NCBI GenBank assembly: GCA_043797265.1
Contig: JAZDPV010000002.1
Location: forward strand, 8,203 to 40,202
Reading direction: 5' to 3'
DNA length: 32,000 nt
Source: an archaeon
GTDB taxonomy: Archaea; Nanobdellota; Nanobdellia; Pacearchaeales; GW2011-AR1
Each line of letters begins with the position of its first letter. Position 1 is the stretch's first letter. The position numbers and the translations under genes are program-made. Below are positions 1 through 32,000 of the stretch, one piece after another. Under the pieces are notes generated by a model. The model did no database searches. It saw only the letters and a list, made by a program, of their open reading frames with translations, and was not told the DNA's origin.

Positions 1-1265
1 CTCAAAATCGCCTCCCCGTTTTCATTCTTCGTCCCCCCAATCTCGCAAACATCATCCAGGCACCTGAACCGCACCCTCGCCTCGACCGGATTCAAATCAA
101 CATCATAACTATAAACATCAACATCCTGATTCCTAAACTCACAAACTCTCGATTCAATCGAAGCCCCAGTCGTCGTCGGCAACGCAGCCCTCGCCCGATT
201 CTTCGAAATCACAACCGCAACCGGGAACTGGAAAATTTCCTTCTCATCGTAAAACTGAACCAGCACCGGGAAATTAATATCATAAACAAAATGATAAGGC
301 ACATAACAAAAACCCATCATCCCCATCCCTTCCTGCAACCCAACCGGCTTCGCAACCATGTCCCCATAAATCTCAATCGACGTCGGCCAGCCCAGCGAAT
401 AAACAAAATTAACATTCTCATCGATTCTTTCGCCAATATCCGTAACAAAATAACTCTCCTCCTCCGACGACAAATCATAATAACTCCCATCCAACTTCAG
501 CATCGGGATATTCGCCCCAAGCCCACCAATAATATCTTTCTTAATATTCTCTTCGACAAAAATCTTCGGCGCGCAACCAATCTCCGTCCCCGTCACCGGC
601 GCATACAGCCTCATCACATCCAGCGCATAATTCTCTAAAAACATCGAACTCTTCTCATAATCATAAACATCAATCGCCATCCCATAAAATTTCCCCAACT
701 TGCTTCCGACCGAAAACTTGTGCTCATCAACGACAACCGCACTCTCACCCTTGAAAATCGTAACCTTATTATTAACCTCCAAATCAACACTCAAACTATT
801 TATCCTCGATGAAACACTCCCCTCATCAACATAAACATCATAACCCGCCTTTTCAAAATCCGAAAAATCACAATCACCAACTCTCTCCGCAACATAACTC
901 GCCAACTCATTCTCCATTCCCGTCCTGCTCGGAACACTTTCCCTCAAAAAATTATTCCCCGAAACATACATCCAATACGGAACCGCCTGCCCCAAAAAAT
1001 TCAACTGCGACGAAAACGGCATATAAGCAGAACCCGACTCAAACTCAGGAATCTCAATCCGCCCCCCCTGCTCCCCCAAAAGATTAATTCCCTCGCGCGC
1101 ACTCGCCTCCAAACACGAAATATAACAATCATAAACCGGCCTCAACTCCTCCGGCACACTCTCACCTAAATTATCCCTCAAAAGAAAATACATCGCAACC
1201 CCGACGACAATCACAACTGCAACAATAATAAAAATCGTAACCTGTGCCCTTCTATCGCCTACCAT
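1..1265 (-). CDS. Partial (3' end beyond window start) pilin-like/secreted hypothetical protein, at least 421 aa; N-terminus MVGDRRAQVTIFIIVAVVIVVGVAMYFLL
   Basis: Absent from the ORF track because it has no stop in the window. Hand translation of the reverse strand from the ATG (complement of 1263-1265) stays open to position 1. Basic residues, then A-Q, then about 20 hydrophobic residues resemble an archaeal class III signal peptide. Confidence 0.6.
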   Translation of the reverse strand, partial: MVGDRRAQVTIFIIVAVVIVVGVAMYFLLRDNLGESVPEELRPVYDCYISCLEASAREGINLLGEQGGRIEIPEFESGSAYMPFSSQLNFLGQAVPYWMYVSGNNFLRESVPSRTGMENELASYVAERVGDCDFSDFEKAGYDVYVDEGSVSSRINSLSVDLEVNNKVTIFKGESAVVVDEHKFSVGSKLGKFYGMAIDVYDYEKSSMFLENYALDVMRLYAPVTGTEIGCAPKIFVEENIKKDIIGGLGANIPMLKLDGSYYDLSSEEESYFVTDIGERIDENVNFVYSLGWPTSIEIYGDMVAKPVGLQEGMGMMGFCYVPYHFVYDINFPVLVQFYDEKEIFQFPVAVVISKNRARAALPTTTGASIESRVCEFRNQDVDVYSYDVDLNPVEARVRFRCLDDVCEIGGTKNENGEAIL

Positions 1266-1287
1266 TTATCCCCACCTCTCAAAACAA

Positions 1288-1364
1288 AATCCGTGTTAGT
1301 TAGCATGCCCCAACCCATTTGAACTATTAATTTGTGAGGGTACCGCGTTAGTCCGTGTGCTAAT
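1288..1364. repeat. Interrupted copy of the triple-decamer repeat family (aatccgtgttagt ... ccgcgttagtccgtgtgctaat)
   Basis: Matches the copies at 2621-2654, 8792-8826 and 25801-25833. Here it is split by a ~42 nt insert containing agcatgccccaaccc. Confidence 0.6.
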
Positions 1365-1506
1365 TTTTCCCCCATACAAAGTCGCCCCCATACACCTGCC
1401 CACGACGAAGTCGTAGCCCCAATCACGAAGCAATTATCCCCTCGACGCGAAGCGTCGTATCCCCATTTTTGCAAAGCAAAAATATCGCCAAACGAAATCT
1501 CTGATT

Positions 1507-1626
1507 TCATTTTTTTACTTTCTCCTTAATTAATTCCATAATCTCGCTATTAATATCTTTCTCAATTTTCGCCTTAAACTTCTCCCACAACTCCTCATCC
1601 TCGACCAACAACAAATACTTTTTCAT
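1507..1626 (-). CDS. 39-aa small protein MKKYLLLVEDEELWEKFKAKIEKDINSEIMELIKEKVKK; possibly ribbon-helix-helix/antitoxin-like
   Basis: Hand translation; below the track size cutoff. Its stop overlaps (ATGA) the start of reverse ORF 1259..1510. The functional guess rests on size and charge pattern only. Confidence 0.3.
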   Translation of the reverse strand: MKKYLLLVEDEELWEKFKAKIEKDINSEIMELIKEKVKK

Positions 1627-1823
1627 TTTTTATTCCCACAAAAATGAAACATGAAACATCTTCGATGTTACTTTTTCACCAAAACCCAAACAAACCCAAA
1701 CTTATAAACTTTCCTAAATAAATTATTAACTAACTTACTTAGTAAGTTCATCCAACACTCTTAAATCCAATAACTTTTCAAACCCGCCCATAAAAACCCC
1801 AAAAATAAAAAGTGCCACCAAAA

Positions 1824-2718: not shown

Positions 2719-3021
2719 ATGAAAATCCCAAAGACAACAAACAGATACTGCCCCTATTGTAAAAAGAAAACTCCACAAAAAATTAAAGAACCAAGCAAAG
2801 GAAAAGCAAGTTCAATGAAACGCGGAAGCAAAATTAGAATGAAACTCCGAGGACTCTGGCGAGGCATAGGCAACCAGGGAAAATATTCCCGTATGAAAAA
2901 CCAAGCAAAACAAAAAAGAAAAACAACTAAGAAAACAAACCTCATGTACACCTGCTCCGTATGCGGAAAATCTAAATATCAAAAGAAAGGCAAACGAACC
3001 TCAAAAGTTATAATTGAATAA
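2719..3021 (+). CDS. rpl44e: Ribosomal protein eL42 (L44e)
   Basis: 100 aa, K/R-rich, two CxxC pairs (CPYC, CSVC) in the spacing typical of L44e. Confidence 0.9.
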   Translation: MKIPKTTNRYCPYCKKKTPQKIKEPSKGKASSMKRGSKIRMKLRGLWRGIGNQGKYSRMKNQAKQKRKTTKKTNLMYTCSVCGKSKYQKKGKRTSKVIIE

Positions 3022-3650
3022 TGGCAGAAAGAAAAAAATACATCGAAGTTCAAATCCCAATTCTAAATTCCGCGACAAATGTTTTAGGAACCCCGGAAAA
3101 TCTAAACAACAAAACAATAAAAATCGACCTGACACGACAACTCCGGGGCAAAGGACTAACAATCAAACTCAAAATAATAAACCAAAAAGGGACACTCATC
3201 GCCATCCCAAATAGCATGGAACTCTCGATATCCTACATAAGAAGAATCATGCGAAAAAGAATAAGCTACGTCGAAGACTCCTTCAAGACAAAATGCGCCG
3301 ACGTCCAAGTCACAATAAAACCATTCCTAATCACGCGAAAAAAAGTCTCAAGGGTAGTTCAAAAAAATCTAAGGAACACCACAAAAGAATTCCTGATAGA
3401 ATATGTAAAAGAAAAAGACTACAACCAAATCTGCCACGAAATCCTCGACAGCACACTTCAAAAAACCATGCTCCCAAAACTAAAAAAAATATATCCCCTC
3501 TCCTTTTGCGAAATCAGAAAATTCGAAACAAAAGAACTGGGAAAAATAAACATAGAAAAAGCGTCCAAAATAATCGCCGACCAAGAAAACCAAATTGAAG
3601 AAACACTAAAAGAAGAAACCATCGAAAACAAAGAACCAGAAAAAGAATGA
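3021..3650 (+). CDS. rps3ae: Ribosomal protein eS1 (S3Ae)
   Basis: 209 aa. Its start overlaps the rpl44e stop by 1 nt. KKIYPLSFCEIRK near the C-terminus and the overall pattern match archaeal S3Ae. Confidence 0.85.
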   Translation: MAERKKYIEVQIPILNSATNVLGTPENLNNKTIKIDLTRQLRGKGLTIKLKIINQKGTLIAIPNSMELSISYIRRIMRKRISYVEDSFKTKCADVQVTIKPFLITRKKVSRVVQKNLRNTTKEFLIEYVKEKDYNQICHEILDSTLQKTMLPKLKKIYPLSFCEIRKFETKELGKINIEKASKIIADQENQIEETLKEETIENKEPEKE

Positions 3651-4366
3651 AAAAAATATTTTTAGGGGCACCAGGCTCGGGCAAAGGAACCGCCGCTTCA
3701 AAAATCGCGCCAAAACGCAACGTCCCGCACATTTCAACAGGCGACCTATTCAGGGAAAATATAAACAAAAAAACGCCCATCGGAGCAAAAGCAAAAGAAT
3801 ACATAGAAAAAGGAGAACTTGCCCCGGACGAAATAGTAATTGAAATGTTAAAAAAAAGAATACAACAAGAAGATTGCCAAAACGGATTTATCCTCGACGG
3901 ATTCCCGCGAACAATTTCACAAGCAGAAAAATTATCAAAACTAACTAACATCGACCTCGTAATAAACATAAGCGTCCCAAAAGAAATAATCATCCAAAGA
4001 TTATCCTCAAGAATCACCTGCAAAGAATGCGGAAAAATCTTTAACGCAATCTACCATAAACCAAAAAACGAAAGCAAATGCGATCAATGCCATGGGGAAA
4101 TAATCAGAAGACCCGACGACAAACCAGAAATTATCCAAAACAGATTAAAAATCTACGAAGAACAAACCGCCCCACTCATCGAATTTTACAAAAGCAAAGG
4201 AATCCTGCAAAATATTTTATGCGACGACATCAACAAGCCAGCAGACGAAACAGCGCAATTAATTATAAACTCTATAAAAGAATTCTCAAACAAAATAAGT
4301 CAAATTATTCTACCTTCAAACCTTTCTTCTTTGGCCTCTTCTTCCTGCTCCTCGAAGTCCCACTAA
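3647..4366 (+). CDS. adk: Adenylate kinase, long bacterial type with zinc LID
   Basis: P-loop GAPGSGKGT; LID CKECG...CDQCHG; RRPDD. 4-nt overlap with rps3ae. About 29 aa of S/L-rich tail follow the conserved core. Confidence 0.92.
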   Translation: MKKIFLGAPGSGKGTAASKIAPKRNVPHISTGDLFRENINKKTPIGAKAKEYIEKGELAPDEIVIEMLKKRIQQEDCQNGFILDGFPRTISQAEKLSKLTNIDLVINISVPKEIIIQRLSSRITCKECGKIFNAIYHKPKNESKCDQCHGEIIRRPDDKPEIIQNRLKIYEEQTAPLIEFYKSKGILQNILCDDINKPADETAQLIINSIKEFSNKISQIILPSNLSSLASSSCSSKSH

Positions 4367-4498
4367 TTAACTCCCTCAATTTTTTCTTCCTCCGCGCAAC
4401 TCTCCAAGAACGATTCCTATCAAGTCGCTTCGGCTTATTTTTCCCCGGCATAATAACTAATCAAAAAATCACATTTTAAATCTTTTGTTTGACTCACA

Positions 4499-4570
4499 AG
4501 CCTGCGAAGGGAGTCAAACCCTCGACCCTCTGTTTACAAGACAGATGCTCTATCACTGAGCTACGCAGGC
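4499..4570 (-). tRNA. tRNA-Thr (anticodon UGU), 72 nt
   Basis: Hand fold: GCCTGCG/CGCAGGC acceptor, GCTC/GAGC D stem, TCTGT-CTTGTAA-ACAGA anticodon arm, GAGGG-TTTGACT-CCCTT T arm. Confidence 0.88.
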
Positions 4571-4618
4571 ACAATATACCATCAAGAAACCTTGTTTTAA
4601 ACTTTTTGGACTCACAAT

Positions 4619-4724
4619 TAATTTTAATTTTCGGTAGGGAATTTCGCAGCGTAAAAATTTCTGCAGTGTATTCAAATACATAAAGAAATTTTTACCAAGA
4701 AATTACCAGCGAAAATTAAAATTA
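4619..4724. repeat. 106-nt palindromic (MITE-like or structured-RNA) element, copy A
   Basis: About 90 percent identical to 31486-31591. 15-bp perfect terminal inverted repeat taattttaattttcg/cgaaaattaaaatta, inner inverted repeat gtaaaaatttct/agaaatttttac. The terminal tta is the stop codon of the GINS gene. Confidence 0.8.
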
Positions 4725-5279
4725 ATCCTCATCAATGACTTCAACCCGCTTATCCTTTTCAAGAATATCCACAATTTCAAATTCTAAATTTGCAACCTCT
4801 CCCTTCCCAAACGGCCCAACATCCCTCCCGCTAATCCCTAAAAACTCCGGCACATCCTCGAGAAATCTAACCAACCGATGTTTCCTCTCATCCCTCGCCG
4901 AACCAAACATATCAACCGCCTGATTTTTTTCCGCCCTCTCCAGCGCCTTCACCAACTCCTCAAACAAATCCTTCTCGAACCCCAGCAAATTCTCAAAATC
5001 CTTCTTCGAAATCCCAACCTGCGACGCCACAAACGCCAAATTTAAAATCTTCTTTTTCCGAATCCTCAGCAAATCCCTAAAACTCGAAACCGCATTATCC
5101 AACTTCTTCTTGTTTTTAATCGCAACATCCGAAAACAAATCGTCCTCCTTCCCAAGAAACTCCTTCTTCTCCCGAAAATACTCCGACACCTCAATCAAAA
5201 ACCTCTTCGGCAAAACCTGCAAATTCTCGCTATACTTCTCTTTCCTCATCGCTTCATAAATATCGCTAAACGTCAACAT
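4722..5279 (-). CDS. GINS subunit (Gins51/Gins15-like)
   Basis: 185 aa. The helical N-domain pattern (SDIYEAMRKEKYSENLQVLPKRFLIEV) and C-terminal VRFLEDVPEFLGISGRDVGPFGKGEVANLE resemble archaeal GINS51. Judged by pattern recognition only. Confidence 0.6.
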   Translation of the reverse strand: MLTFSDIYEAMRKEKYSENLQVLPKRFLIEVSEYFREKKEFLGKEDDLFSDVAIKNKKKLDNAVSSFRDLLRIRKKKILNLAFVASQVGISKKDFENLLGFEKDLFEELVKALERAEKNQAVDMFGSARDERKHRLVRFLEDVPEFLGISGRDVGPFGKGEVANLEFEIVDILEKDKRVEVIDED

Positions 5280-5354
5280 CCCAACAAAAAATCTACCCCA
5301 TTTAAAAGAATTGTTATACTAAACAAATTTAAACCAAAACCGCCTCGAAAAACC

Positions 5355-6404
5355 ATGTTCGACTCACTGAAATCAAAACTAAAAAACTGGCTAAACAAAA
5401 ATAAAGATGCCCCAGATACCAGGGGATACGCCGAGCGGCGACCCATAGCCGAAACCCCAAAAAAAGAAAAGAAAAAAATCAAGACCAAAAAACCAAAAAA
5501 CGAATTAGAATTATCTTTAAAAAAAACAATTGAAACACCAATTGAAAAAGAGAGCTTCTTCTCCAAATTCAAAAAACGACTGACTGAAGAAAAATTCGAA
5601 GAACTCTTCCAAGAACTCGAAATGATTCTCCTGCAAAACAACGTCGCATACGAGGCTGTCCAATCAATAAAAAACTCCCTCGCTGAAAAACTAATCGGCA
5701 AAATCCTAAACGAAGTCGACCTCTCAAAAGAACTCAAAGAATCAATCGAATCAATTCTAATCAACCCGCCAGACTTCCTAAAAGAAATCAAGAACTCGTT
5801 AGAAATAAAAAAACCATTCGTAATCCTCTTCGCCGGAATCAATGGCTCCGGCAAAACAACGACAATCGCGAAAGTCGCAAACTATCTCCAAAAAAATAAA
5901 CTAACTGTCTGCCTCGCCGCTGCCGACACTTTCCGAGCCGCCGCAATCCAGCAACTCGAAGAACACGCAACCAAACTAAAAGTTCCATTAACAAAAAAAG
6001 ATTATGGCTCAGACCCAGCATCCGTCGGATTCGAAGCAATCGCACGCGCAAAAAAAAATAAAATCGACGTCGTCCTAATCGACACCGCCGGCCGAATGCA
6101 AAACCGCGACTCGCTAATGAAAGAAATAGAAAAAATCTCACGAATCACAAAGCCAAACATGACAATCTTCATCGGCGAATCAATAACCGGCAACGACGCA
6201 ACCGAACAAGCCAAAACATTCAACGACGCAATCAACATAACCGGAATAATCCTATCTAAAGCCGACGTCGACGAAAAAGGCGGCACCGCAATCTCCGTCT
6301 CCCACATCACAAAAAAACCAATCCTATTCCTCGGAACCGGCCAATCCTACAACGATTTAGAAATTTTCGACAAAAAAAAGATTATTGAAAAACTAGAACT
6401 ATGA
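5355..6404 (+). CDS. ftsY: SRP receptor FtsY
   Basis: GINGSGKTTT, DTAGR and SKADVDEKGG motifs; K/E-rich N-terminal A-domain. Confidence 0.95.
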   Translation: MFDSLKSKLKNWLNKNKDAPDTRGYAERRPIAETPKKEKKKIKTKKPKNELELSLKKTIETPIEKESFFSKFKKRLTEEKFEELFQELEMILLQNNVAYEAVQSIKNSLAEKLIGKILNEVDLSKELKESIESILINPPDFLKEIKNSLEIKKPFVILFAGINGSGKTTTIAKVANYLQKNKLTVCLAAADTFRAAAIQQLEEHATKLKVPLTKKDYGSDPASVGFEAIARAKKNKIDVVLIDTAGRMQNRDSLMKEIEKISRITKPNMTIFIGESITGNDATEQAKTFNDAINITGIILSKADVDEKGGTAISVSHITKKPILFLGTGQSYNDLEIFDKKKIIEKLEL

Positions 6405-7000
6405 AATTAAACATCCCTTTTCGCAAATCAGAAATAGACACAGAATGCGCCCAAAGATGTCTCCAAATGGTTCTTGAATATTTCGAACAAAAACATTCAA
6501 TCAAAGAACTCTCAAAACTAACCAAACAACTCCCATCTGGAATGACATGGACAGCAGGAATAGCAAGAGCTTCAAAAATTCTCGGGTTCGAAACAAAAAT
6601 AATTTCCAAAACAAATTTTTCCCACGACGAAAACGAAATAAAATATTACAAAGAACACGCAAAAGAAATGAAAACACTTTACAATTTAATCAAAAAAAAT
6701 AAAAAACTAAAAATCTCGACAGAAGAAGAAAATCTCTCAATCAATCAACTAATAAAACTCCTAACAAAAAATTCAATCCCGATAATTCTTATTAATTGGA
6801 ATACATTAATCCAAAAAGAAAATTATCAAGGACATTTTGTAGTTCTTTCAGGATATGACAATAAAAATATATATATTCACAACCCTGGCATAGCAAAAGC
6901 CCAGCCATTTATGAAAATCAAAAAAGAATTATTCAAAAAAGCATGGGAATCAAAAGGCACCGACAAAGACATTGTATTAATTTCAAAACCCAAAATTTAA
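6401..7000 (+). CDS. Peptidase C39-like (papain-fold Cys peptidase) domain protein
   Basis: N-terminal Cys context (TECAQRCLQMVLEY) and downstream GHFVVLSGYD His motif, about 200 aa. ATGA overlap with ftsY. Confidence 0.5.
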   Translation: MKLNIPFRKSEIDTECAQRCLQMVLEYFEQKHSIKELSKLTKQLPSGMTWTAGIARASKILGFETKIISKTNFSHDENEIKYYKEHAKEMKTLYNLIKKNKKLKISTEEENLSINQLIKLLTKNSIPIILINWNTLIQKENYQGHFVVLSGYDNKNIYIHNPGIAKAQPFMKIKKELFKKAWESKGTDKDIVLISKPKI

Positions 7001-7025
7001 TAACTCCAATTAAACCCCTATTTCT

Positions 7026-8684: not shown

Positions 8685-8737
8685 ACATAATTTACAATCC
8701 TAATACTTATAAAAACAACTATACTCCAAAATATATA

Positions 8738-9379: not shown

Positions 9380-9406
9380 CCTTTAATTAATCTTCGATTA
9401 ATTTAT

Positions 9407-9425
9407 GCTCTTCTTATAGAAGAGC
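9407..9425 (+). terminator. Hairpin GCTCTTCT-TAT-AGAAGAGC downstream of bud32, preceded by AATTAATC-TTC-GATTAATT at 9385-9403
   Basis: Perfect 8-bp stems read directly. A terminator role is only inferred. Confidence 0.3.
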
Positions 9426-9456
9426 TTAAAAATTCCCAAACTCTATCTAAGCTACT

Positions 9457-18865: not shown

Positions 18866-18873
18866 ATAAAATC

Positions 18874-24028: not shown

Positions 24029-24204
24029 CAATCCTCCAAAACAGAAACTATACTCGCAACCAATGATGAAAGCAGCCCAAATGCACTTATCAAAAGTCCT
24101 TGCATCCCAAGAATATTTAATTTTATCAAAGTTATGGCAAAATAAATAAAAATCGCAAAATTAATTATCTGTGAAAAAATTGTCAATCCACGACTAACCC
24201 TCAT
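24028..24204 (-). CDS. 58-aa two-TM micro-protein
   Basis: Hand translation MRVSRGLTIFSQIINFAIFIYFAITLIKLNILGMQGLLISAFGLLSSLVASIVSVLED. TGATG overlap with the peptidase start. Confidence 0.35.
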   Translation of the reverse strand: MRVSRGLTIFSQIINFAIFIYFAITLIKLNILGMQGLLISAFGLLSSLVASIVSVLED

Positions 24205-24205
24205 C

Positions 24206-24310
24206 CTAAATCAAAAGAGCTTTGATTATCCCAAAAACAAGCAGTCCCAAAGCAATAAATCCCATCACCCAAGCAACCACCTGCAAAATTTCCAACACTC
24301 TTTTCTCCAT
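24206..24310 (-). CDS. 34-aa single-TM micro-protein
   Basis: Hand translation MEKRVLEILQVVAWVMGFIALGLLVFGIIKALLI. Its stop lies 1 nt before the next ATG. Confidence 0.3.
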   Translation of the reverse strand: MEKRVLEILQVVAWVMGFIALGLLVFGIIKALLI

Positions 24311-24474
24311 ACAGTAAAAACAACACTAATTTATTTAAACCTTCCTCTTTCTTTTTCTCTCACCCTCTTCAACTTCCTGCACTCGAAACTTTCCCCCGCG
24401 CTTATACCCCCGCGCTAACCTCTTTCTCCTTAAATCCTTTTTCGTCCGACGCCGCTCACTCCCGCCATACTCCA

Positions 24475-25026
24475 TCACTCGCCCCCCGCCTCGCTCTCGC
24501 TCACCACATACTCCCTCGCAAAATCATATTCAAACCAAACCGGAAAATTAATTCTGCCACTCTCCGGCGCCCTCAAAAAAATCTTCTTCCCCATCGTGTT
24601 CCTCCTGAAAATCAAATCTCCATTTCTACTAATCACCTCCGAATAAAGATTTTTGTCCAAAAACTCCCGCCCCTCTCTTCGCGCATCGTCCTCAAAATCC
24701 CGCCCGCCAAAAACCAAATCCCTAAAAATAAAATCACTCATCTGCTCGTCGGCAATCACGTCGTCCAAAAATCTGTTTCTAAATTCCAAAATAAATTCAT
24801 CACTCCCAAATTTCCCCTCGACACTTTTAGCCGTAAATTCAACCAGCGCCTTTTCTCTCACCTCAAAAATCTCCAAATCATCCCTCATCTCCAAAACCGC
24901 CCTCGGCGACACAAGCGAACTATCCGCATTACTCTGCTCAACTCCATAAAGCACCCAAACCACCCCGCACATAAACAAAGTCACCAAAACCAAGACCGCC
25001 GCAAAAACCTGCCCCCGATTATTCAC
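24475..25026 (-). CDS. Pilin-like protein (class III signal peptide MNNRGQ-VFAAVLVLVTLFM)
   Basis: The track ORF starts at TTG 25059. GTG at 25026 overlaps the upstream stop (GTGA) and gives a canonical short signal peptide. Confidence 0.6.
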   Translation of the reverse strand: MNNRGQVFAAVLVLVTLFMCGVVWVLYGVEQSNADSSLVSPRAVLEMRDDLEIFEVREKALVEFTAKSVEGKFGSDEFILEFRNRFLDDVIADEQMSDFIFRDLVFGGRDFEDDARREGREFLDKNLYSEVISRNGDLIFRRNTMGKKIFLRAPESGRINFPVWFEYDFAREYVVSESEAGGE

Positions 25027-25301
25027 CTTCCCATCTCCTTCGACAACCAACCTTTCCAATCCCCATTTTTTTCAACCACAATCCTCAACTGCGTCATATT
25101 ATTAAATTGCTTGTCCGCATAATCAAAAACGTCATCCACTCCAATATCAACCTCACCCTGGACGCCAAAACTATCTTCCCTCTGAACAATCTTCTTCACA
25201 ATCCCCGAAGCAACAATCATCACCACTAAAATTATAACAATAACTATCGTCGCCACAAACAACGAAACAAAACTTCCAATAATCCCCTTGCTACTCTTCA
25301 T
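25023..25301 (-). CDS. Pilin-like protein, 92 aa (MKSSKG-IIGSFVSLFVATIVIVIIL)
   Basis: Class III-type N-terminus; overlaps its neighbours. Confidence 0.65.
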   Translation of the reverse strand: MKSSKGIIGSFVSLFVATIVIVIILVVMIVASGIVKKIVQREDSFGVQGEVDIGVDDVFDYADKQFNNMTQLRIVVEKNGDWKGWLSKEMGR

Positions 25302-25785
25302 TCACCAAAACCTCCACTTCGATTTTCCCATAACTCTCAACAAAATCATCTAGGACAATAACATCATAAATCCTGCTTGAATAACCCGGCTCATATTTCA
25401 AAATGTCAACCGAGGCCATCTTCTCGTCAAAAATTCTCCTAACCCACAACGCACCCGAATCTCCCTGTGAAAATTCAGCAACGCCTCTCCCATCGCTACT
25501 CACACTAACCTTGGCATAAAATCTCTCGACCTCATAGTCGCTAAACCCACAATAAGAAAAAATCTCTGCACCTTCGCCAAATAAATCCAAATCAACAACT
25601 CCCAACGGCGCAACGCAATCCACAATATTCCTCGTCATCAAAACCGCCTCCGCGTCCCTCACATCAATATAATGCGCATAAAAAACCGACGACACTCCCA
25701 AAACAATAAACGCAACAAGAGTAACCAACGCCAAACGATACATCATCAAAATCCCCTCGCCCAGAACCCCCTTTTTATTCAGCAT
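25291..25785 (-). CDS. Pilin-like protein, 164 aa (MLNKKG-VLGEGILMMYRLALVTLVAFIVL)
   Basis: Class III-type N-terminus. Shares the MLNKKG start with 27325..27792. Confidence 0.65.
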   Translation of the reverse strand: MLNKKGVLGEGILMMYRLALVTLVAFIVLGVSSVFYAHYIDVRDAEAVLMTRNIVDCVAPLGVVDLDLFGEGAEIFSYCGFSDYEVERFYAKVSVSSDGRGVAEFSQGDSGALWVRRIFDEKMASVDILKYEPGYSSRIYDVIVLDDFVESYGKIEVEVLVNEE

Positions 25786-25800
25786 GCCAACCCCCTAAAA

Positions 25801-25833
25801 AATCCGTGTTGGTCCGTGTTGGTCCGTGTGCCA
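25801..25833. repeat. Triple-decamer repeat element (aatccgtgttggtccgtgttggtccgtgtgcca)
   Basis: Lies between a TATA-like ttatttttaaaa (25834-25845) and the ATG at 25785 of a pilin-like gene. Confidence 0.75.
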
Positions 25834-25926
25834 TTATTTTTAAAATTACAAAGTCGTCCATTAAAAATCGCAAAAAATCCGCCGAACCTAATCCTTCAAT
25901 GCAACCCACATCCTTAACACAAAAAT

Positions 25927-26277
25927 TCATCTCACACTCACCACAAATTTATCATCTTCCTCAGCAACCCGAACATCGTACTTGCTAAAATACGGATACC
26001 CCTCAAACGCGCTCAACCCCGCAACCTCGACAAAAACTTTCCCATTTTCAATTCTAACATCCGAAACAAACCCGTCCAAATTATTTTTCTCAATCTCGAA
26101 ACTCATCCCCGGCACCGCCGCGTCAACCAACAACGCAATCTCTTTTTCCAAAACCTGTTGCTTCACCCCCCGCGCATTTATCTTTCCCGCCGTCACGAAC
26201 AAAAACAACGCCAAAATAATCCCAATCAAAATAAGATGAATAATCACCTGATGCAATAAACTCCCTTTCTTTTTCAT
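25927..26277 (-). CDS. Pilin-like protein, 116 aa (MKKKG-SLLHQVIIHLILIGIILALFLF)
   Basis: Class III-type N-terminus; TAATG overlap with the upstream gene. Confidence 0.65.
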   Translation of the reverse strand: MKKKGSLLHQVIIHLILIGIILALFLFVTAGKINARGVKQQVLEKEIALLVDAAVPGMSFEIEKNNLDGFVSDVRIENGKVFVEVAGLSAFEGYPYFSKYDVRVAEEDDKFVVSVR

Positions 26278-27134
26278 TATGCCGGTATTGTCAAAAATTT
26301 ACATCCAAGAGATTCTATATCATTAGAATAAGCCATAACAATGGATCTCTCCAGTCCATAGGCTTCTATAAAATATTCCTTAGCAGACTCTTTCATCTCT
26401 TTATTGCGAGACAAGTAACCAGCAATAAAAGTAGACCAACTAGCAACATCAATCCACTGCTTAGATGCCCATCCCGCAATACCTTGCTTTTTCTTATGTA
26501 TGGCATAAATAAGTATTTGGTCTTCTTTTTGTGGATACATCTTAACGCCCAAAGGAACAAAAGCAAACCCTGGGTTCTCCTCCAAAAACATCACTACTGG
26601 TAAATATTCATCATAAGTCAAAGACTCTTCGGCAATCTTTGTTTTTTTATAATAATCATAAAAACCCAAATTATATCTCCCTTTACTATCCTCTCCATCT
26701 CTCGTCATTTCATTAAATTCATTTAAGGCATTGTCTGTATAATGAATTCTCGCAAAAGCCATACATACAATATTTTTTTCCCAAAAACTAGGCCCTATAA
26801 AATTAAGCTTTCCCTCTCCAAACATATACCATCCCTCTGCAACAGCCTTAGATATTTTATCATAAACTTCATCTCGATTAGCACTATTAACATTCACAAC
26901 TTCAGTCTTACACTTCAATGGGAAAACACCACCCACATCAAGACCTATCTCTTCTAATTTTTCACTTGACAAACTCGCTCTCACCAAAATACTCTGCCTA
27001 CAAACCTGCCAATCCAACTCGTCCTGATTAAAATATTCATTAAAAATCCAATACAAACCTATCACCAAAACCATCAACCCCAATATCAAAGATGTAATAA
27101 TATAAAACTTCTCCGACCCCTTTCTACTTATCAT
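26277..27134 (-). CDS. Pilin-like protein, about 285 aa (MISRKG-SEKFYIITSLILGLMVLVIGL)
   Basis: The track start at 27143 is TTG; the first ATG is at 27134. Confidence 0.65.
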   Translation of the reverse strand: MISRKGSEKFYIITSLILGLMVLVIGLYWIFNEYFNQDELDWQVCRQSILVRASLSSEKLEEIGLDVGGVFPLKCKTEVVNVNSANRDEVYDKISKAVAEGWYMFGEGKLNFIGPSFWEKNIVCMAFARIHYTDNALNEFNEMTRDGEDSKGRYNLGFYDYYKKTKIAEESLTYDEYLPVVMFLEENPGFAFVPLGVKMYPQKEDQILIYAIHKKKQGIAGWASKQWIDVASWSTFIAGYLSRNKEMKESAKEYFIEAYGLERSIVMAYSNDIESLGCKFLTIPA

Positions 27135-27164
27135 CGAAAACAAAACAAAACAAACTTAATAAAA

Positions 27165-27350
27165 CTAACTCCCCGCCTTAATAATAATCGCTCTCACCGC
27201 AAACCCCACAGCGACGACAATCGCCAAATACAAAATCCATTTTATGACCTCATCCGAAACAATATGCCCACGCTTTCCTGAAATCTGATACCTGAAATCT
27301 GAAGCCTCACGAAGATGTCCTCTCTTAAATTTTATTAATCTCATAAACAT
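27165..27350 (-). CDS. Small pilin-like protein, 61 aa (…SGKRGH-IVSDEVIKWILYLAIVVAVGFAV)
   Basis: ORF track; overlaps the upstream gene by 26 nt; start uncertain. Confidence 0.45.
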   Translation of the reverse strand: MFMRLIKFKRGHLREASDFRYQISGKRGHIVSDEVIKWILYLAIVVAVGFAVRAIIIKAGS

Positions 27351-27792
27351 CTTCCTTTAATTTTATTTCAATCTTGTCAATCGGATTAAGAACCCACGAC
27401 GACGCCCCATCCATCAAAGCCGAACGCCCCAACTCTCCGCAACGCGAACACTCATACTTACCCTTCCGCCCGTAACAAATACAAAACTTATTCACATTAT
27501 TATCAAGACAAAAAAATCTACTTTCAACATTTTTCTTATCCCCAAAATAAACCAAATAAAAATCATTCTTCTCGCTAACTTGCCAAATTGAAAACTCCCC
27601 GACGCTACCAGAATCAGCGACGCCAACCTGCGCCAAAAAACTATCACGATAAGACTCCGCAGTTTTCTCACCGACGTCAAAACTCGGCGAAATCAACTTA
27701 TACAACAAAAACGCCAAAACCAAAACCACAGCCGCCGCCAGCACAATTTCCAAAATTTCTCCCGTCGTCAAATCGCCTTTTTTATTCAACAT
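27325..27792 (-). CDS. Pilin-like protein, 155 aa (MLNKKG-DLTTGEILEIVLAAAVVLVLAFLLY) with a Cys cluster
   Basis: Class III-type N-terminus; FFCLDNNVNKFCICYGRKGKYECSRCG. Confidence 0.65.
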   Translation of the reverse strand: MLNKKGDLTTGEILEIVLAAAVVLVLAFLLYKLISPSFDVGEKTAESYRDSFLAQVGVADSGSVGEFSIWQVSEKNDFYLVYFGDKKNVESRFFCLDNNVNKFCICYGRKGKYECSRCGELGRSALMDGASSWVLNPIDKIEIKLKEDVYEINKI

Positions 27793-28952
27793 TTGTCCTT
27801 TAAAAACTCATAAATTTTATTTAACCTAATCACATCATCAAGTTCCTTGTCAGACATTTTCTCCACTGCATAAAAAAAAGCATTACTCCCATCCGGAGCA
27901 ACAACATCAACACCAACATCATTCAGATAACCCGACATCTTTATCTGAACAATAGCTCTCTTGTTCCCAACCTCATCATTAACAACAACTATCGGAGAAT
28001 TAACCACGCCGACAACATCAACCGAAAACTTGCCCCCCTGCAAATCGTAATCTAATAATTCCTTAAACTCCAAATTCAAACCATCCTCATATTTCTCAAT
28101 CTCTTTCTCTCTTACCTCTTGCATTAAAATCAGCGTCGGATTTTTCTCCCATATCAAATTGGTAAAATCTGTACTATACCAAAAATCATTCCCACTCCTC
28201 CACCCAACCATCAACTTATCAAAATAATTAAACTCTTCCCCATAATCCTCAACCGACTCCCAACCGTCGCCAACGCGGATATCCCACCTCCCCTTCTCGT
28301 CCGAAAAACAATACTCTTCAATATTTTTATCGCCAACCCTGGAACTACATACCTCCCAAGATGCCAAGTCCTCCATCCATCTATACAAATTAGCCCCAAT
28401 TCTAATATAAATCTTAAACTCGGACCTCAACTCTAAAGACATATCCACCCGACTTCTCTTGTGAATATTAAAATATTTTTCATAAGCCCCCTTATACGAT
28501 TTATACAATTGCCCCACAATATTAATTTTATCAACATCTAACCCAACAAAACTCTGATCAAAAGAATGCCATTTCCCATCATCCTTCACCCCACCATCAT
28601 TCATGACGCCACTATCAATATTATATTTAAAACGATTCGAATTCAAATCAGCAAATTTAAAATCATTATCCATCCTAATTTCACAATACCCCTTGCAATA
28701 AATTATCTTACCATCCCCAACCCCCTCGATAAAAACATCACTCTCATCCAAGCATTCCACCCCATCTCCTCCATTATCACCGTCGCCAAACATCAACAAC
28801 ACCTCATTCACCATCCCCTCAACTCTATCCTTCAACGGAATCAACCCACCACTCGAAACTCCATAAACAATCAACACCAACAAAATCACCAACAAGACAA
28901 TCGACATCAACTTCCCAACACTCCACTCAACCGCACCACCCTTCCCTCTCAT
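27786..28952 (-). CDS. Pilin-like protein, 388 aa (MRGKGG-AVEWSVGKLMSIVLLVILLVLIVYG)
   Basis: Class III-type N-terminus; large D/G/W-rich body of no recognised family. Confidence 0.65.
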   Translation of the reverse strand: MRGKGGAVEWSVGKLMSIVLLVILLVLIVYGVSSGGLIPLKDRVEGMVNEVLLMFGDGDNGGDGVECLDESDVFIEGVGDGKIIYCKGYCEIRMDNDFKFADLNSNRFKYNIDSGVMNDGGVKDDGKWHSFDQSFVGLDVDKINIVGQLYKSYKGAYEKYFNIHKRSRVDMSLELRSEFKIYIRIGANLYRWMEDLASWEVCSSRVGDKNIEEYCFSDEKGRWDIRVGDGWESVEDYGEEFNYFDKLMVGWRSGNDFWYSTDFTNLIWEKNPTLILMQEVREKEIEKYEDGLNLEFKELLDYDLQGGKFSVDVVGVVNSPIVVVNDEVGNKRAIVQIKMSGYLNDVGVDVVAPDGSNAFFYAVEKMSDKELDDVIRLNKIYEFLKDKC

Positions 28953-29046
28953 CGCAAAAATAATATTCCAATCTTTATTAAACTTCCCAAAACATCTACT
29001 CTAAAATCTAATCTCTAACATCTAACATCTCGCAATCGCAAAGCGA

Positions 29047-29190
29047 TTAGCGTCCAAACCTCAAAACATTTCTAACAGAATCCAAAATCTGCCCACCCTT
29101 CCCGCTCAACAAAACAATCACCGCCCCGACCATTATCACTAAAACAACAATCACAATAATTATCTTGACAATCTCACTCTCTCCTTCCAT
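29047..29190 (-). CDS. 47-aa single-TM micro-protein
   Basis: Hand translation MEGESEIVKIIIVIVVLVIMVGAVIVLLSGKGGQILDSVRNVLRFGR. Hairpin AATCGC-AAA-GCGATT at its stop. Confidence 0.35.
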   Translation of the reverse strand: MEGESEIVKIIIVIVVLVIMVGAVIVLLSGKGGQILDSVRNVLRFGR

Positions 29191-29224
29191 AGAAATCAAA
29201 TCAAATCAAATTATATAAAACTTC

Positions 29225-29602
29225 CTAACACTTAATCGAAGCACAACTCTCAAACCCCATCCCCTTTATCTGCCCAGCGGAAACCTTTCCATCAACAACA
29301 AAACTATCGCTCGAAAAATTCACACACGTCCCGCTCACCTTCACAACTTTCCCAGCACTATCAAAAAATCTCAACTCTTTATTCTCAAAACAATAAGACG
29401 TCCTCTCTCCCAACGAACAATCCGTCTCACAATCTTTTATTTTATCCTCGACATTCGAACCCGAAACCGAACCCGTCACCTTGCTCCATAAATTACTCCA
29501 CCCCGTGCTAAACCCATAAATCAAAAATATAAGAACAACAATCCCGAGAACAATCGCAATAATCGTCGACAAAGTCATCTGCTGTCCCCTCTTATTTTCC
29601 AT
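29225..29602 (-). CDS. Cys-rich pilin-like protein, 125 aa (MENKRGQ-QMTLSTIIAIVLGIVVLIFLIYG)
   Basis: Class III-type N-terminus; 6 Cys; paralog of 29948..30283. Confidence 0.7.
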   Translation of the reverse strand: MENKRGQQMTLSTIIAIVLGIVVLIFLIYGFSTGWSNLWSKVTGSVSGSNVEDKIKDCETDCSLGERTSYCFENKELRFFDSAGKVVKVSGTCVNFSSDSFVVDGKVSAGQIKGMGFESCASIKC

Positions 29603-29746
29603 CTACGCAACTCCCGTCAGCAACAACATCGCAAGAAAAACTGAAATCGCGCCAGTCACCACCAATAATTTATACTTCCCAAACAAAATCGGCAACAAAT
29701 TTATAACAATAATCGCAATACCGATAATCAAACTTGCCTCTACCAT
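29603..29746 (-). CDS. 47-aa two-TM micro-protein
   Basis: Hand translation MVEASLIIGIAIIVINLLPILFGKYKLLVVTGAISVFLAMLLLTGVA. Its stop abuts the next ATG. Confidence 0.35.
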   Translation of the reverse strand: MVEASLIIGIAIIVINLLPILFGKYKLLVVTGAISVFLAMLLLTGVA

Positions 29747-29913
29747 ACCCCTTTCTCCACAATTAATTTAAATATTTCAAGCATCAATCCCACAGTTGCA
29801 ACAAAACTCCCCAAATTAACCATCCCAAAAGAAATAGCAACCCCGCCACAAATAACAATAAGCCCACAAATAATATTCAACAAATCCAACTGCCCCTTCT
29901 TACCAACTCTCAT
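29740..29913 (-). CDS. Mini pilin-like protein, 57 aa (MRVGKKGQ-LDLLNIICGLIVICGGVAISFG)
   Basis: Hand translation, below the track cutoff; 7-nt overlap with the next ORF. Confidence 0.45.
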   Translation of the reverse strand: MRVGKKGQLDLLNIICGLIVICGGVAISFGMVNLGSFVATVGLMLEIFKLIVEKGVW

Positions 29914-29947
29914 CTTATACTCACATCTCCTTTATTTATAAAACTTC

Positions 29948-30283
29948 CTAACAAACAATCCCGTCGCAACTCATCTCGTTTATTTTCCCCGACGACCAAC
30001 CCTCCACTCGCGCAGCGCCGCAAGTCAACTCCAATTTATCCTTCCCGTTAAGAACAACATCCCTCTCCTCGCAACAATAAGAATAAACCGACTCAGTCGC
30101 AACTAAATTATTACAAGCACTCACAACCACATCCACATTACTCTCACTCTCATAACCCCTGAACCACCTCGACAAAAATCCCGTCTGCGAATTCACAAAA
30201 ATTATCAAAATCGTCAAAACCGCAATCGACAAAATTATCATAATCACCGTCGTCACCGCCATCTCCAAACCTCTTTTATTCAT
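29948..30283 (-). CDS. Cys-rich pilin-like protein, 111 aa (MNKRG-LEMAVTTVIMIILSIAVLTILIIF)
   Basis: The track start at 30289 is TTG; the ATG is at 30283. 6 Cys; paralog of 29225..29602. Confidence 0.7.
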   Translation of the reverse strand: MNKRGLEMAVTTVIMIILSIAVLTILIIFVNSQTGFLSRWFRGYESESNVDVVVSACNNLVATESVYSYCCEERDVVLNGKDKLELTCGAARVEGWSSGKINEMSCDGIVC

Positions 30284-30317
30284 AATCAATTAATAAAACT
30301 AAACTATTTAAATTTCC

Positions 30318-31451
30318 CTATTTCTTCTGCACCTCATAAATCGCGACCACTTCATCCCCGCCCAAAATCCTATCAAACAACATAATATTATCAATCGAGC
30401 CATCCATAAAACTACCACCACTCCAGGAACCAATTAACATACTCTCAATATTCGTAGTGTCCCCAAGAATCGCAAGAGTAGCCTCCCCAGCTTTAACAGA
30501 ATCGACATAATAAACAAAAGCCCCGTTATTATAATCATATTCCAAAATTAAATGATGCCAATTAAAATCAGTTATAACATTAGCAGACGAAGAAGCACTC
30601 ACCGCAGCAGTCCCATCATTAAAATAACAATTAACTCTCTTAGTAGTATTATAAAAATAAAAATCAAAATTACTATCCCCGCTACAGCTACTAAAACACC
30701 TCTTAACAACTATTCTCTGAGACACATCAAGGGTATCAAATTTAACCCACGCAGAAATAGTCAACTTATTATTAAAATCCAAACTCCCATCATCCCCCAC
30801 ACTCACATAATCCCCCGCCCCATCCAAACTCAAAACCCCATCAACCAACTCATCCCCCTCACCATAAATAACCCCGTTATTATCTCCCCAACCATCATCA
30901 GCATCCCCGCTAAAAGTCCAAATCGAAACCAGCCCGTCCGTCGGCACCTCGTAAAAATAATCCCCGCCCAAATCGTAAACGCTCCCCTGAACTTCGCTAA
31001 TGCTTTTCGCCGGCAAATTCGCCGTCGACGTCACCGAGCCCTCTTTCTCCGCCCCATTCTTCCCGACAAAAATCGGCGAAGCAGCGACGCTGTCCGGCAC
31101 CCCGTAACTCGACAAGTCAAAAGCGTAAACTTTCGTCTGCCCCGAATTCGGCGCAACCACCGTCGACGAAACCGAATTCCCGTCGATAGAAAACGAAATC
31201 TTAATCCGCTCCATCACGCCCTCGTCAACTTCCCTCTTCACCTGCACCGTCGCAACCTCCCGCATCGGATCATAAACCGTGTATCCCCCCGACGACAAAA
31301 CGCTCACCCGCCCATCTAAATCCTGAAAATCAAAACTCTCCCGAACCATCGGCAAAATCCCGACCCAAATTATCGCAACCCCCGCGACCGTTATTAAAAT
31401 AATCAGAACAGTCGCGACAATCGCACTAATCCCCTTTTTCATAAAATCCAT
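30318..31451 (-). CDS. Archaeal pilin N-terminal domain fused to a LamG/concanavalin-A-like lectin domain
   Basis: MKKGISAIVATVLIILITVAGVAIIW resembles the archaeal Pilin_N (DUF1628) type. The C-terminus (LSLDGAGDYVSVG...LTISAWVKFD...WHHL...GSIDNIMLFDRIL) fits the LamG_3 pattern. First ATG at 31451, alternative at 31442; the track starts at TTG 31457. Confidence 0.75.
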   Translation of the reverse strand: MDFMKKGISAIVATVLIILITVAGVAIIWVGILPMVRESFDFQDLDGRVSVLSSGGYTVYDPMREVATVQVKREVDEGVMERIKISFSIDGNSVSSTVVAPNSGQTKVYAFDLSSYGVPDSVAASPIFVGKNGAEKEGSVTSTANLPAKSISEVQGSVYDLGGDYFYEVPTDGLVSIWTFSGDADDGWGDNNGVIYGEGDELVDGVLSLDGAGDYVSVGDDGSLDFNNKLTISAWVKFDTLDVSQRIVVKRCFSSCSGDSNFDFYFYNTTKRVNCYFNDGTAAVSASSSANVITDFNWHHLILEYDYNNGAFVYYVDSVKAGEATLAILGDTTNIESMLIGSWSGGSFMDGSIDNIMLFDRILGGDEVVAIYEVQKK

Positions 31452-31485
31452 TACCAATCAAACTATTTAAAATTACTCACAAAAC

Positions 31486-31591
31486 TAATTTTGATTTTCG
31501 ATAGGAAATTTCGCCGTGTAAAAATTTCTGCAGTGTATTCAAATACATAAAGAAATTTTTACCAAGAAATTACCAGCGAAAATTGAAATTA
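31486..31591. repeat. 106-nt palindromic element, copy B
   Basis: See copy A (4619-4724). Its terminal tta is again the stop codon of the upstream reverse-strand gene. Confidence 0.8.
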
Positions 31592-32000
31592 GGTCAAATT
31601 CGCCAACGCAACCGCCCCAATCACCGTCAACACAACAATCGAAACCACCGCAACAATCGTATACAAAACAATCGTCGTCCTCAAATTCCTCCCCGTCTGC
31701 GCCGTCGCCATCAACGGGTCCCGCCCCGCCTTAATCATCACCAGCGTCGAACTCAAAATAAAAACTATCTCGACCAAATAAATCCCGACGATAACCTGCA
31801 GCCAATAAGTCGGAATCATTTTCGTCACATCAAAAATAGAAAGTATCCCAACAATCCCCCCGCTCCCAATCTCAGCCGTATTTCCAAGTTCCCCGCCAGT
31901 CAACATCGCCGACAAGCTCCCAAGAATCGTCGTTATCATTCCCGCCAACCCGACAATAATTCCCGCCAGCAACGGCGCCAAAAAAGTCATGTTCGACTTC
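31589..32000 (-). CDS. Polytopic membrane protein (at least 133 aa, about 4 TM); possibly the C-terminal part of a FlaJ/PilC-type platform protein
   Basis: ORF track. The frame is still open for the 3 codons between the ATG (31990) and the window edge, so the true start may lie outside. The functional guess rests only on context and topology. Confidence 0.45.
   Translation of the reverse strand, partial: KSNMTFLAPLLAGIIVGLAGMITTILGSLSAMLTGGELGNTAEIGSGGIVGILSIFDVTKMIPTYWLQVIVGIYLVEIVFILSSTLVMIKAGRDPLMATAQTGRNLRTTIVLYTIVAVVSIVVLTVIGAVALANLT

Follow-up and report, generated by a model that had tools for sequence, protein, structure and literature searches.

Strong mutational asymmetry between the two strands of a Pacearchaeota chromosome, probably arising from replication

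Strand asymmetry in itself is textbook knowledge, and in bacteria an excess of G over C together with an excess of T over A on the same strand is the signature of the leading strand (PMC7143001). Strand-separated codon usage is known in Borrelia burgdorferi, Treponema, Chlamydia, Buchnera, Blochmannia, Bartonella, Tropheryma and Lawsonia (PMC2671203); in Lawsonia, one of ten bacteria with this property, third-position G+T is 0.571 versus 0.507. Whole-chromosome G/C disparity has been described in the CPR Microgenomates UBA1400, Ca. Chazhemtobacterium aquaticus Ch65, Collierbacteria and Beckwithbacteria (PMC7143001, PMC11514846). The mitochondria of Galdieria have an extreme GC skew (PMC4316638), and the composition of mitochondrial proteins follows the strand (PMC2779903), as it does in the DNA described here. 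The DPANN archaeon Ca. Forterrea has a bacterial-type cumulative GC skew with a single cdc6-adjacent origin and bidirectional replication (PMC5905446).

We describe here 32,000 nucleotides of chromosomal DNA ("the window") from a Pacearchaeota (DPANN) archaeon, lying on a contig of 57 kb, in which the asymmetry reaches a strength that is not textbook for a cellular chromosome. We found no published account of such a strand bias in archaea, the closest being that of the CPR bacterium Ch65. The two strands are under different, deamination-type mutational pressure, and we infer that chromosome replication is probably the source of the asymmetry.

Base composition, gene direction and coding consequences

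The top strand of the window contains 11512 A (36.0%), 9523 C (29.8%), 7257 T (22.7%) and 3708 G (11.6%), giving a GC skew of -0.44 and an AT skew of +0.23. Calculated from these counts, G and C depart from parity by about 50 SD and A and T by about 31 SD. GC skew is negative in all 64 500-base windows (range -0.11 to -0.78; 0/64 of reversed sign), and 62 of the 64 have a positive AT skew. The non-coding DNA is skewed likewise (GC -0.42, AT +0.16), and the G+T excess on the bottom strand is present in every site class. The original prediction of a top strand that is A+C-rich and G-poor throughout, made from five 60-nt hand counts that we reproduce exactly, is thus confirmed by the full counts and the 500-base windows; its further claim that the window lacks a skew switch is upheld by the latter and by gene-by-gene third positions. 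The window is organized as follows.

1..32000, both strands: entire window; top strand A+C-rich and bottom strand G+T-rich, with a single polarity end to end
3..1265, reverse: secreted-protein gene truncated by the left window end, with a 73% identical ortholog in one relative (L082); third-position top-strand A+C 0.88
2719..12328, forward: gene block (Pfam) on the A+C-rich strand encoding L44e, S3Ae, adenylate kinase, FtsY, a C39-like peptidase, SRP54, a Bud32/RIO-type kinase, S15, RecJ/GAN (DHH) and an S1-domain protein; third positions 83% A or C; proteins K/I/Q-rich
4722..5279, reverse: GINS-like gene, matching the Pfam families Gins51_C and Sld5 weakly and in both cases under the curated cut-offs
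12745..21742, reverse: genes (Pfam) on the G+T-rich strand encoding a family-4-type UDG, a small membrane protein, a 1556-aa secreted protein, RadA, YdjM and RPA; 81% of codons end in G or T; proteins G/V/F/W-rich
22203..23213, forward: putative EF-1beta-like gene (judged by eye from the sequence) and a HIT protein gene (Pfam)
23210..31990, reverse: prepilin peptidase (Peptidase_A24, Pfam), then a cluster of small proteins that have hydrophobic segments at the N terminus and look like pilins or secreted proteins; strand composition unchanged

The bias tracks the DNA strand, whatever the direction of the genes. On the top strand, the four-fold degenerate sites of forward genes have A.42, C.40, G.08, T.10 and those of reverse genes A.35, C.47, G.08, T.10, so that A+C is 82% in both sets; the AT skew at four-fold sites is +0.54. 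On the coding strand, third positions are opposite in the two sets, and the original prediction survives this check: forward genes have A.48, C.35, G.075, T.096, whereas reverse genes have A.12, C.07, G.39, T.42, or a third-position G+T of 0.17 versus 0.81. Across all 34 genes the top-strand third-position A+C is between 0.63 and 0.88, with means of 0.83 for forward and 0.80 for reverse genes (p = 0.23), and it is flat along the 32 kb (Spearman rho 0.00). The strand-linked component of skew at four-fold sites is 0.54-0.67 and the orientation-linked component only about 0.02-0.03. Genes that interrupt a block in the opposite direction have the composition of their neighbours: the GINS-like gene within the forward block has a top-strand A+C of 0.86, and the EF-1beta-like and HIT genes amid reverse genes have third-position values of 0.87-0.88.

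This strand pressure extends to codon choice, amino acid composition and long stop-free antisense frames. AAA usage is 95% in forward genes versus 37% in reverse genes, that of GAC 89% versus 17%, and that of TTG 1% versus 64%; codon counts thus agree with the predicted preference for A/C-ending codons in forward and G/T-ending codons in reverse genes, and with the gene starts quoted in its support. The predicted protein compositions are partly borne out: forward-gene proteins are rich in K, I and Q and reverse-gene proteins in G, V, F and W, but N content is alike on both strands (5.5% versus 5.4%) and L is slightly commoner in the forward-gene set, not the reverse. Spurious ORFs had been noted on the top strand antisense to reverse genes, and these are present; the bottom strand also has them, with nine of at least 100 aa opposite forward genes. 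Three on the top strand are antisense codon for codon:

17606..18547, forward: spurious 313-aa ORF antisense to the 1556-aa gene
18918..19778, forward: spurious 286-aa ORF antisense to radA
30552..31319, forward: spurious 255-aa ORF antisense to a 379-aa reverse gene

The 313-aa frame stays open because NNK codon usage yields MNN codons on the other strand, which are never stop codons. The practical effect is that codon-for-codon antisense frames are open over hundreds of codons, and in the public gene calls of one relative antisense ORFs are annotated in place of real genes. Strand-dependent amino acid composition within a single protein family can also mislead phylogenies and homology searches.

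Mutational origin of the bias

The same strand bias is found across 79 related species, where it is graded from absent to stronger than in the window, and in dozens of independent MAGs from unrelated projects and assemblers. One relative (L007) provides a natural experiment in that its conserved pilin-to-RadA block is inverted with respect to the flanking T2SSE-Hef block and has the opposite skew, the T2SSE-Hef block retaining the usual polarity. We count 223 derived third-position changes in the inverted block on this branch (T>C 153, G>A 45, T>A 19, G>C 4, T>G 2), of which 89% are T>C and G>A transitions, equal to A>G and C>T on the G+T-rich strand. Control lineages have few changes and the opposite bias (A>G 0.42-0.56 per site versus G>A 0.03-0.08). 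Amino acid classes of the orthologs in the inverted block have moved by about 7 percentage points. In a second relative (L087), a foreign island of restriction-modification and transposase genes is without skew: its A+C is 0.51-0.54, compared with 0.12-0.20 in the DNA on either side.

Mutation and not selection is the cause, because the skew is present at four-fold sites and in non-coding DNA, the inverted block has been recomposed by directional transitions, and the foreign island is unskewed. Per site, the fixation of C>T and A>G has been about 4-5 times as frequent on the bottom strand as on the top (equilibrium ratios from four-fold sites are A/G 4.7 and C/T 4.6), an excess that brings unconstrained sites to about 80% G+T on the bottom strand and 80% A+C on the top. 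Simple loss of the family-4-type UDG was considered as a cause and rejected, the enzyme occurring in high- and low-skew relatives alike.

Several other sources of asymmetry were weighed against this evidence. One is that skew is set by the non-template strand during transcription, through transcription-coupled repair or deamination or through purine loading. In its favour, bulk GC skew is milder in the forward block, at -0.22 to -0.35 compared with -0.42 to -0.67 for reverse genes, and AT skew is larger there. These differences reflect a small orientation component of total composition, mainly at codon positions 1 and 2, whereas at four-fold sites the strand component dwarfs it and the interleaved opposite-direction genes match the top-strand composition of their neighbours. 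The original prediction had named gene orientation as the alternative; since the skew keeps its sign when orientation changes, we reject transcription as the main cause and consider it extremely unlikely. A DNA deaminase with a preferred motif, or some other editing or defence enzyme directed at one strand, would account for both fixed changes being deamination-type transitions. The bias nevertheless holds for all four 5′ and all four 3′ neighbouring bases (0.63-0.93), which argues against a motif-specific enzyme; C and A are hit about equally, the trait is graded over a whole order-level clade, and no deaminase genes were seen in the examined loci, making this explanation very unlikely. Strand-specific G>A and T>C changes are also of the kind that results from chemical deamination, as might arise from strand-specific damage in library preparation or bisulfite-like conversion, and chimeric assembly is a related concern. 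We reject an artefact, to which we give virtually no credence: long ORFs with significant Pfam matches are unbroken on both strands, amino acid usage has co-evolved with the bias, the foreign island lies unbiased within a skewed contig, and the pattern recurs in the many independently assembled MAGs.

Replication and its possible geometry

The original prediction invoked a replication-linked or other strand-specific mutational process. Its strand-specific part is established by the data above, and the link to replication, which we infer and regard as probable, rests on the bottom strand's excess of both G over C and T over A, as in bacterial leading strands, and on the location of about 70% of coding sequence on the G+T-rich strand (68% of coding bases in the window, a mean of 69% over 12 high-skew loci in relatives, and 75% in one of them, L088). 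The G+T-rich bottom strand would then correspond to leading-strand sequence, its parental strand being exposed in single-stranded form as the lagging-strand template, where cytosine and adenine would deaminate; forks would traverse the region from high towards low coordinates. In a reduced genome, the unusual strength could stem from long or frequent single-strandedness, or from uracil and hypoxanthine being poorly repaired. Counting against replication are a magnitude far above the replication skews of cellular chromosomes, the location of the ribosomal-protein and SRP genes on the presumed lagging strand, and the lack of a sign switch or origin in the loci sampled. Multiple origins, which are common in archaea, would disfavour long tracts of single polarity.

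No sign switch was found in 80 RadA-centred loci (about 20 kb per locus), nor a switch, origin, orc1/cdc6 gene or terminus in about 1.6 Mb of related loci, all of one conserved neighbourhood. In four relatives the polarity persists 10 kb past the equivalent of the window's left end, and on a relative's 132 kb contig it is the same at 18-39 kb as at 64-86 kb, the two stretches sampled, which together span 68 kb. There is no skew gradient between these stretches, although their span is short against the likely chromosome size.

A more radical possibility is that the high-skew Pacearchaeota replicate with an unusual geometry (unidirectional, by strand displacement, or strongly asynchronous), in which, as in the mitochondria of vertebrates, one of the parental strands would long stay single-stranded. 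This predicts that one strand is G+T-rich round most or all of the chromosome, breaking Chargaff's second rule. The four-fold composition and two-transition spectrum are similar to those of mitochondrial L and H strands, the magnitude surpasses every bidirectionally replicated bacterium that we found, and no switch occurs in the two stretches of the relative's contig. There is also a precedent: in the ultra-small CPR bacteria Ch65, Collierbacteria and Beckwithbacteria the cumulative skew is monotonic across the closed genome, and unidirectional replication has been proposed as the reason (PMC7143001). Against this, 68 kb amounts to only some 10% of such a genome, such that a missing switch says little, and there is no skew gradient along the window or between the two sampled stretches of the relative's contig. 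The sole closed DPANN genome analysed for skew has an ordinary two-armed pattern (PMC5905446), and a set of 313 complete archaeal RefSeq genomes contained none flagged as an outlier over its whole length. We therefore think it unlikely, though not negligibly so, that these archaea replicate unidirectionally or by mitochondrion-like strand displacement. Were it so, they would be the first archaea, and the second cellular group after the Ch65-type CPR bacteria, in which a whole genome violates Chargaff's second parity rule, and their graded relatives would offer a route to the responsible replication or repair gene.

The graded relatives and natural inversions could allow comparative genomics to pinpoint the replication or repair function that sets the size of the asymmetry, and the pattern could inform the number of origins and the direction of forks in DPANN archaea.

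Comparison with known systems

Forterrea is also a DPANN archaeon and provides a precedent for replication-linked skew in the superphylum; it belongs to another phylum (Diapherotrites), and neither an unusual magnitude nor an effect on the proteome has been reported for it. The small bacterial genomes with strand-separated codon usage (PMC2671203) are alike in having G+T-rich and A+C-rich strands independent of gene direction, a bias that governs codon usage and reaches amino acid usage, an excess of genes on the G+T-rich strand, and a small, reduced genome. Their skew is documented to switch at oriC and ter, whereas the window and sampled loci show none; the host here is an archaeon, and its third-position G+T of 0.81 versus 0.17 is far stronger than the difference seen in Lawsonia.

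Ch65 is likewise an ultra-small uncultivated organism with about 29.8% C on one strand and genes on both, and in its group too the trait is common to a clade and missing in more distant relatives. Unlike the window (A 36.0%, T 22.7%, G 11.6%), Ch65 has no A/T disparity (A 27.87%, T 27.33%) and 15.0% G; it is bacterial, with a closed genome and proven monotonic skew, in contrast to a 32 kb window and to samples from a 68 kb span in a relative.

Vertebrate mitochondrial DNA likewise has one strand on which C>T and A>G are in excess, leaving a G-poor, A+C-rich partner, with a similar four-fold magnitude. The vertebrate and Galdieria mitochondria have 16-20 kb organelle genomes replicated by strand displacement, with a gradient that follows single-stranded time; here the DNA is a cellular chromosome and no gradient is detectable over 32-68 kb. 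With neutral sites divided about 80:20 between the strands, the window represents a new archaeal extreme, comparable to animal mitochondria.

Gene content and size of the strand bias

The window is archaeal chromosome, forming a slice of a 57,010-bp contig. A RadA-based scan with one genome per species recovered 80 loci, all from Pacearchaeota, Woesearchaeota or Nanoarchaeota MAGs, in which gene order is conserved across the whole window, and the closest relatives are only about 78% identical to it in DNA; a scan of IMG/VR found no relatives, and for three of the window's proteins no exact match is on record. Four tRNA genes are present together with the genes listed below, most of which are named from Pfam matches; the GINS assignment rests on a weak match, and EF-1beta, S1 and pilin are labels from our reading of the sequences.

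Genes and ORFs named in the window
Forward strand: L44e, S3Ae, adenylate kinase, FtsY, C39-like peptidase, SRP54, Bud32/RIO-type kinase, S15
Forward strand, further: RecJ/GAN DHH protein, S1-domain protein, EF-1beta-like gene, HIT protein
Reverse strand: GINS-like gene, family-4-type UDG, 1556-aa secreted protein, RadA, YdjM, RPA, prepilin peptidase
Reverse strand, further: a run of small pilin-looking proteins
1824-2285, reverse: ORF with no Pfam match
8379-8684, reverse: ORF with no Pfam match
12745-13341, reverse: the UDG gene
13928-18598, reverse: the 1556-aa protein
31589-32000, reverse: 133-aa ORF at the window's right edge

We note that the public call corresponding to the 133-aa ORF in the related locus L088 is 721 aa long with the same stop, and the ORF probably represents the C-terminal portion of a far longer gene starting outside the window. 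Between the S1-domain gene and RecJ five relatives (L003, L006, L010, L085 and L087) carry PyrG (CTP synthase), in some cases with thymidine kinase or IMP dehydrogenase close by; PyrG is missing at this position in the window and in L002 and L081-L083.

Base counts (A 11512, C 9523, T 7257, G 3708; 41.3% GC) give a whole-window GC skew of -0.44 and AT skew of +0.23, deviating from parity by about 50 standard deviations for G versus C and about 31 for A versus T. All 2-kb windows have a negative GC skew (-0.22 to -0.67), as do all 64 windows of 500 bases, 62 of which have a positive AT skew, and the non-coding DNA is likewise skewed. The hand counts of five 60-nt lines that accompanied the original prediction all match a recount exactly.

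Base composition at third codon positions and four-fold sites
Third positions, forward genes, coding strand: A.48, C.35, G.075, T.096
Third positions, reverse genes, coding strand: A.12, C.07, G.39, T.42
Four-fold sites, forward genes, top strand: A.42, C.40, G.08, T.10
Four-fold sites, reverse genes, top strand: A.35, C.47, G.08, T.10

That the bias follows the DNA strand and not gene direction, as had been proposed from the sequence, is borne out by partitioning the four-fold skew: the strand part is -0.67 for GC and +0.54 for AT, and the orientation part only +0.03 and +0.02 respectively. Because the orientation component is so small beside the strand component, we reject transcription-coupled skew as the main cause. 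Third-position top-strand A+C lies between 0.63 and 0.88 in 34 of 34 genes, with means of 0.83 for forward and 0.80 for reverse genes (p = 0.23), and no trend was found when we looked for one along the 32 kb. Base counts, windowed skew, and third-position and four-fold composition thus confirm the asymmetry as a whole. The ORFs at 1824-2285 and 8379-8684 have no homolog in any fetched locus and a clearly weaker skew (third-position top-strand A+C of 0.63-0.64, the non-coding level), and are either non-genes or recent arrivals.

Direction of the mutational pressure

Four-fold G+T on the strand carrying radA has a median of 0.60 among 79 species-representative loci; 11 species have 0.70 or more and three have 0.80 or more, so that the value for the window, 0.81, is near the extreme. 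The opposite sign of skew occurs in one locus only, L007, on a 396 kb contig. Here the block running from pilin through RPA to RadA is internally in the usual order and adjoins the T2SSE-Hef block, which in other genomes lies beyond the pilin end and in the other relative orientation; one inversion would be enough to give this arrangement. Polarity is as usual in T2SSE-Hef, and the inverted pilin-RadA block has the opposite composition.

Changes were polarized in seven orthologs, with as many as eight relatives for comparison. Among 223 derived third-position changes on the L007 branch there are 153 T>C, 45 G>A, 19 T>A, 4 G>C and 2 T>G, such that 89% are T>C or G>A, which read as A>G and C>T on the G+T-rich complement; these two transitions amount to about 0.47 per site that was G or T in the ancestor. 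The control branches have few changes and the reverse bias, with A>G at 0.42-0.56 per site versus 0.03-0.08 for G>A. The bias is therefore a mutational pressure whose direction can be read. Pooled four-fold frequencies in the window (A.37, C.45, G.08, T.10) correspond to A/G and C/T ratios of 4.7 and 4.6, implying, if a transition-dominated equilibrium is assumed, that C>T and A>G are roughly 4-5-fold commoner on the bottom strand than on the top. In L007, radA and RPA (8469-10939 of that locus) have moved only partway to the new composition, with third-position keto skews of -0.08 and -0.22; in the other genes of the block the values are -0.36 to -0.59. Slower synonymous change, or later recombination re-importing these genes, are both possible reasons for the lag.

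A restriction-modification island in another relative (L087, positions 2800-9000) contains type I genes (N6_Mtase, Methylase_S), a PDDEXK nuclease and a DDE transposase, and is unskewed, with third-position A+C of 0.51-0.54 versus 0.12-0.20 in the flanking genes; it looks like recently acquired DNA still to be recomposed. The bias is seen after every neighboring base (0.63-0.93), which argues against a motif-specific deaminase and, together with the unskewed island, fits a general pressure acting on resident DNA. Bisulfite-like conversion and DNA-damage artefacts were also considered and rejected. Because the UDG gene is found in high-skew and low-skew relatives alike, its presence alone does not explain the bias. 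By eye, the UDG of the window has the family-4 motifs GEAPG and HPAA, and seems to be without some of the usual cysteine ligands of the iron-sulfur cluster.

Consequences for codons, proteins and gene calls

Synonymous codon choice is nearly inverted between the strands, with forward versus reverse frequencies of 95% and 37% for AAA, 89% and 17% for GAC, 1% and 64% for TTG, and 69% and 1% for CTA plus CTC. The original prediction also had the encoded proteins differing in amino-acid composition; this holds for K, I, Q and T versus G, V, F and W, but not for N and L. Part of the difference could come from gene function, and the same orthologs in L007 therefore serve as a control: after the inversion K+I+N+T+Q+P+H rises from about 24% to 32% and G+V+F+W+C+D falls from about 35% to 28%, and the two oppositely oriented genes of the block shift in the other direction. 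The 1556-aa protein is rich in Cys, Gly and Trp, with a signal-like N-terminal segment, no Pfam domain, and orthologs in L011, L013 and L085 at 58-66% identity; its unusual composition is due in part to its strand.

Codons of reverse genes have the form NNK, so the frame that lies codon for codon antisense to them reads MNN, which is never TAA, TAG or TGA, and so yields long open frames whose translations are rich in P, H, T, N, R and Q. Of the nine antisense ORFs on the top strand that reach 100 aa, seven are in this exact register. Spurious ORFs of P/H/T/N/R-rich composition had been anticipated on the top strand and are present there, but they are not restricted to it, as nine bottom-strand antisense ORFs lie opposite forward genes in another register. 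In one relative an antisense ORF reaches 668 aa where the true gene runs past the contig end. The weakly skewed genes that L095 seemed to have at its end are likewise spurious, being ORFs antisense to a giant gene that leaves the contig.

Automatic gene finders are evidently misled by the strand bias. Public calls for the relatives L081 and L082 have only short reverse-strand antisense ORFs over FtsY, the Bud32-type kinase and RecJ/GAN; L081 has intact forward ORFs there, and in L083 (about 97% identical over aligned stretches) the real forward genes are called.

Miscalled positions in L081/L082
About 7800-9020
About 11900-12430
About 13820-14750

Replication and comparison with known systems

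The excess of G over C and of T over A together on one strand of the window is a signature of bacterial leading strands, and about 68-75% of coding sequence lies on the G+T-rich strand in the window and its relatives. Stretches at 18-39 kb and 64-86 kb of a relative's 132 kb contig (Hef pair) have the same polarity, bracketing the window equivalent and extending it by 22 kb, and a metagenome scan from the left-end gene identified four other relatives in which the sign is kept 10 kb past the window's left end. The loci retrieved, all from one conserved neighborhood, contain no sign switch, origin or terminus, and a search of the 80 loci for Orc1/Cdc6 (ORFs of 300-520 aa with an N-terminal Walker A) recovered only SRP54, RadA and RFC; SRP54 and PyrG matches in relatives always led to the same neighborhood. 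From the leading-strand signature and the share of coding sequence on the G+T-rich strand we infer that the asymmetry is most likely linked to replication. The hedged wording of the original prediction, a replication-linked or other strand-specific mutational process, is supported, with its strand-specific part established directly. A unidirectional or strand-displacement mode of chromosome replication could be envisaged, but we regard it as unlikely.

Named by eye, the genes past the giant surface-protein gene resemble those for TFB, S8e, a pilin-like protein and a MinD-like ATPase. Many independent assemblies of relatives (L006, L007, L011, L081, L082, L085 and L100) end at nearly one place, about 18-26 kb past the equivalent of the window's left-end gene and beside or within genes for giant secreted proteins (1,860-2,970 aa). 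Assembly probably breaks there because a surface-protein gene is repetitive or hypervariable.

In vertebrate mitochondria the strands differ by an asymmetry in the same two transitions, of similar strength. An effect of this kind, but far weaker than that of the window, is seen in bacteria whose codon usage is separated by strand, all with small genomes; third-position G+T in Lawsonia is 0.571 vs 0.507 (PMC2671203). G and C differ over the whole chromosome in the CPR bacterium Ch65 and its relatives (C 29.83%, G 14.97%), for which unidirectional replication has been proposed (PMC7143001), and in a set of 17,873 complete genomes, 313 of them archaeal, Ch65 stands out as the obvious outlier (PMC11514846); however, it has no A/T disparity (PMC7143001), whereas the window has both components. 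The DPANN archaeon Forterrea has an ordinary two-armed skew and a cdc6-adjacent origin (PMC5905446). A search of full-text literature, in which few subscription journals are covered, turned up no account of such a bias for Pacearchaeota, Woesearchaeota, Nanoarchaeota or DPANN. Strand-specific mutational asymmetry is a known kind of phenomenon. The window is an extreme case of it from an archaeon, apparently not described before; the bias is comparable in size to that of mitochondria, has a GC and an AT component, and clearly affects proteins and annotation.
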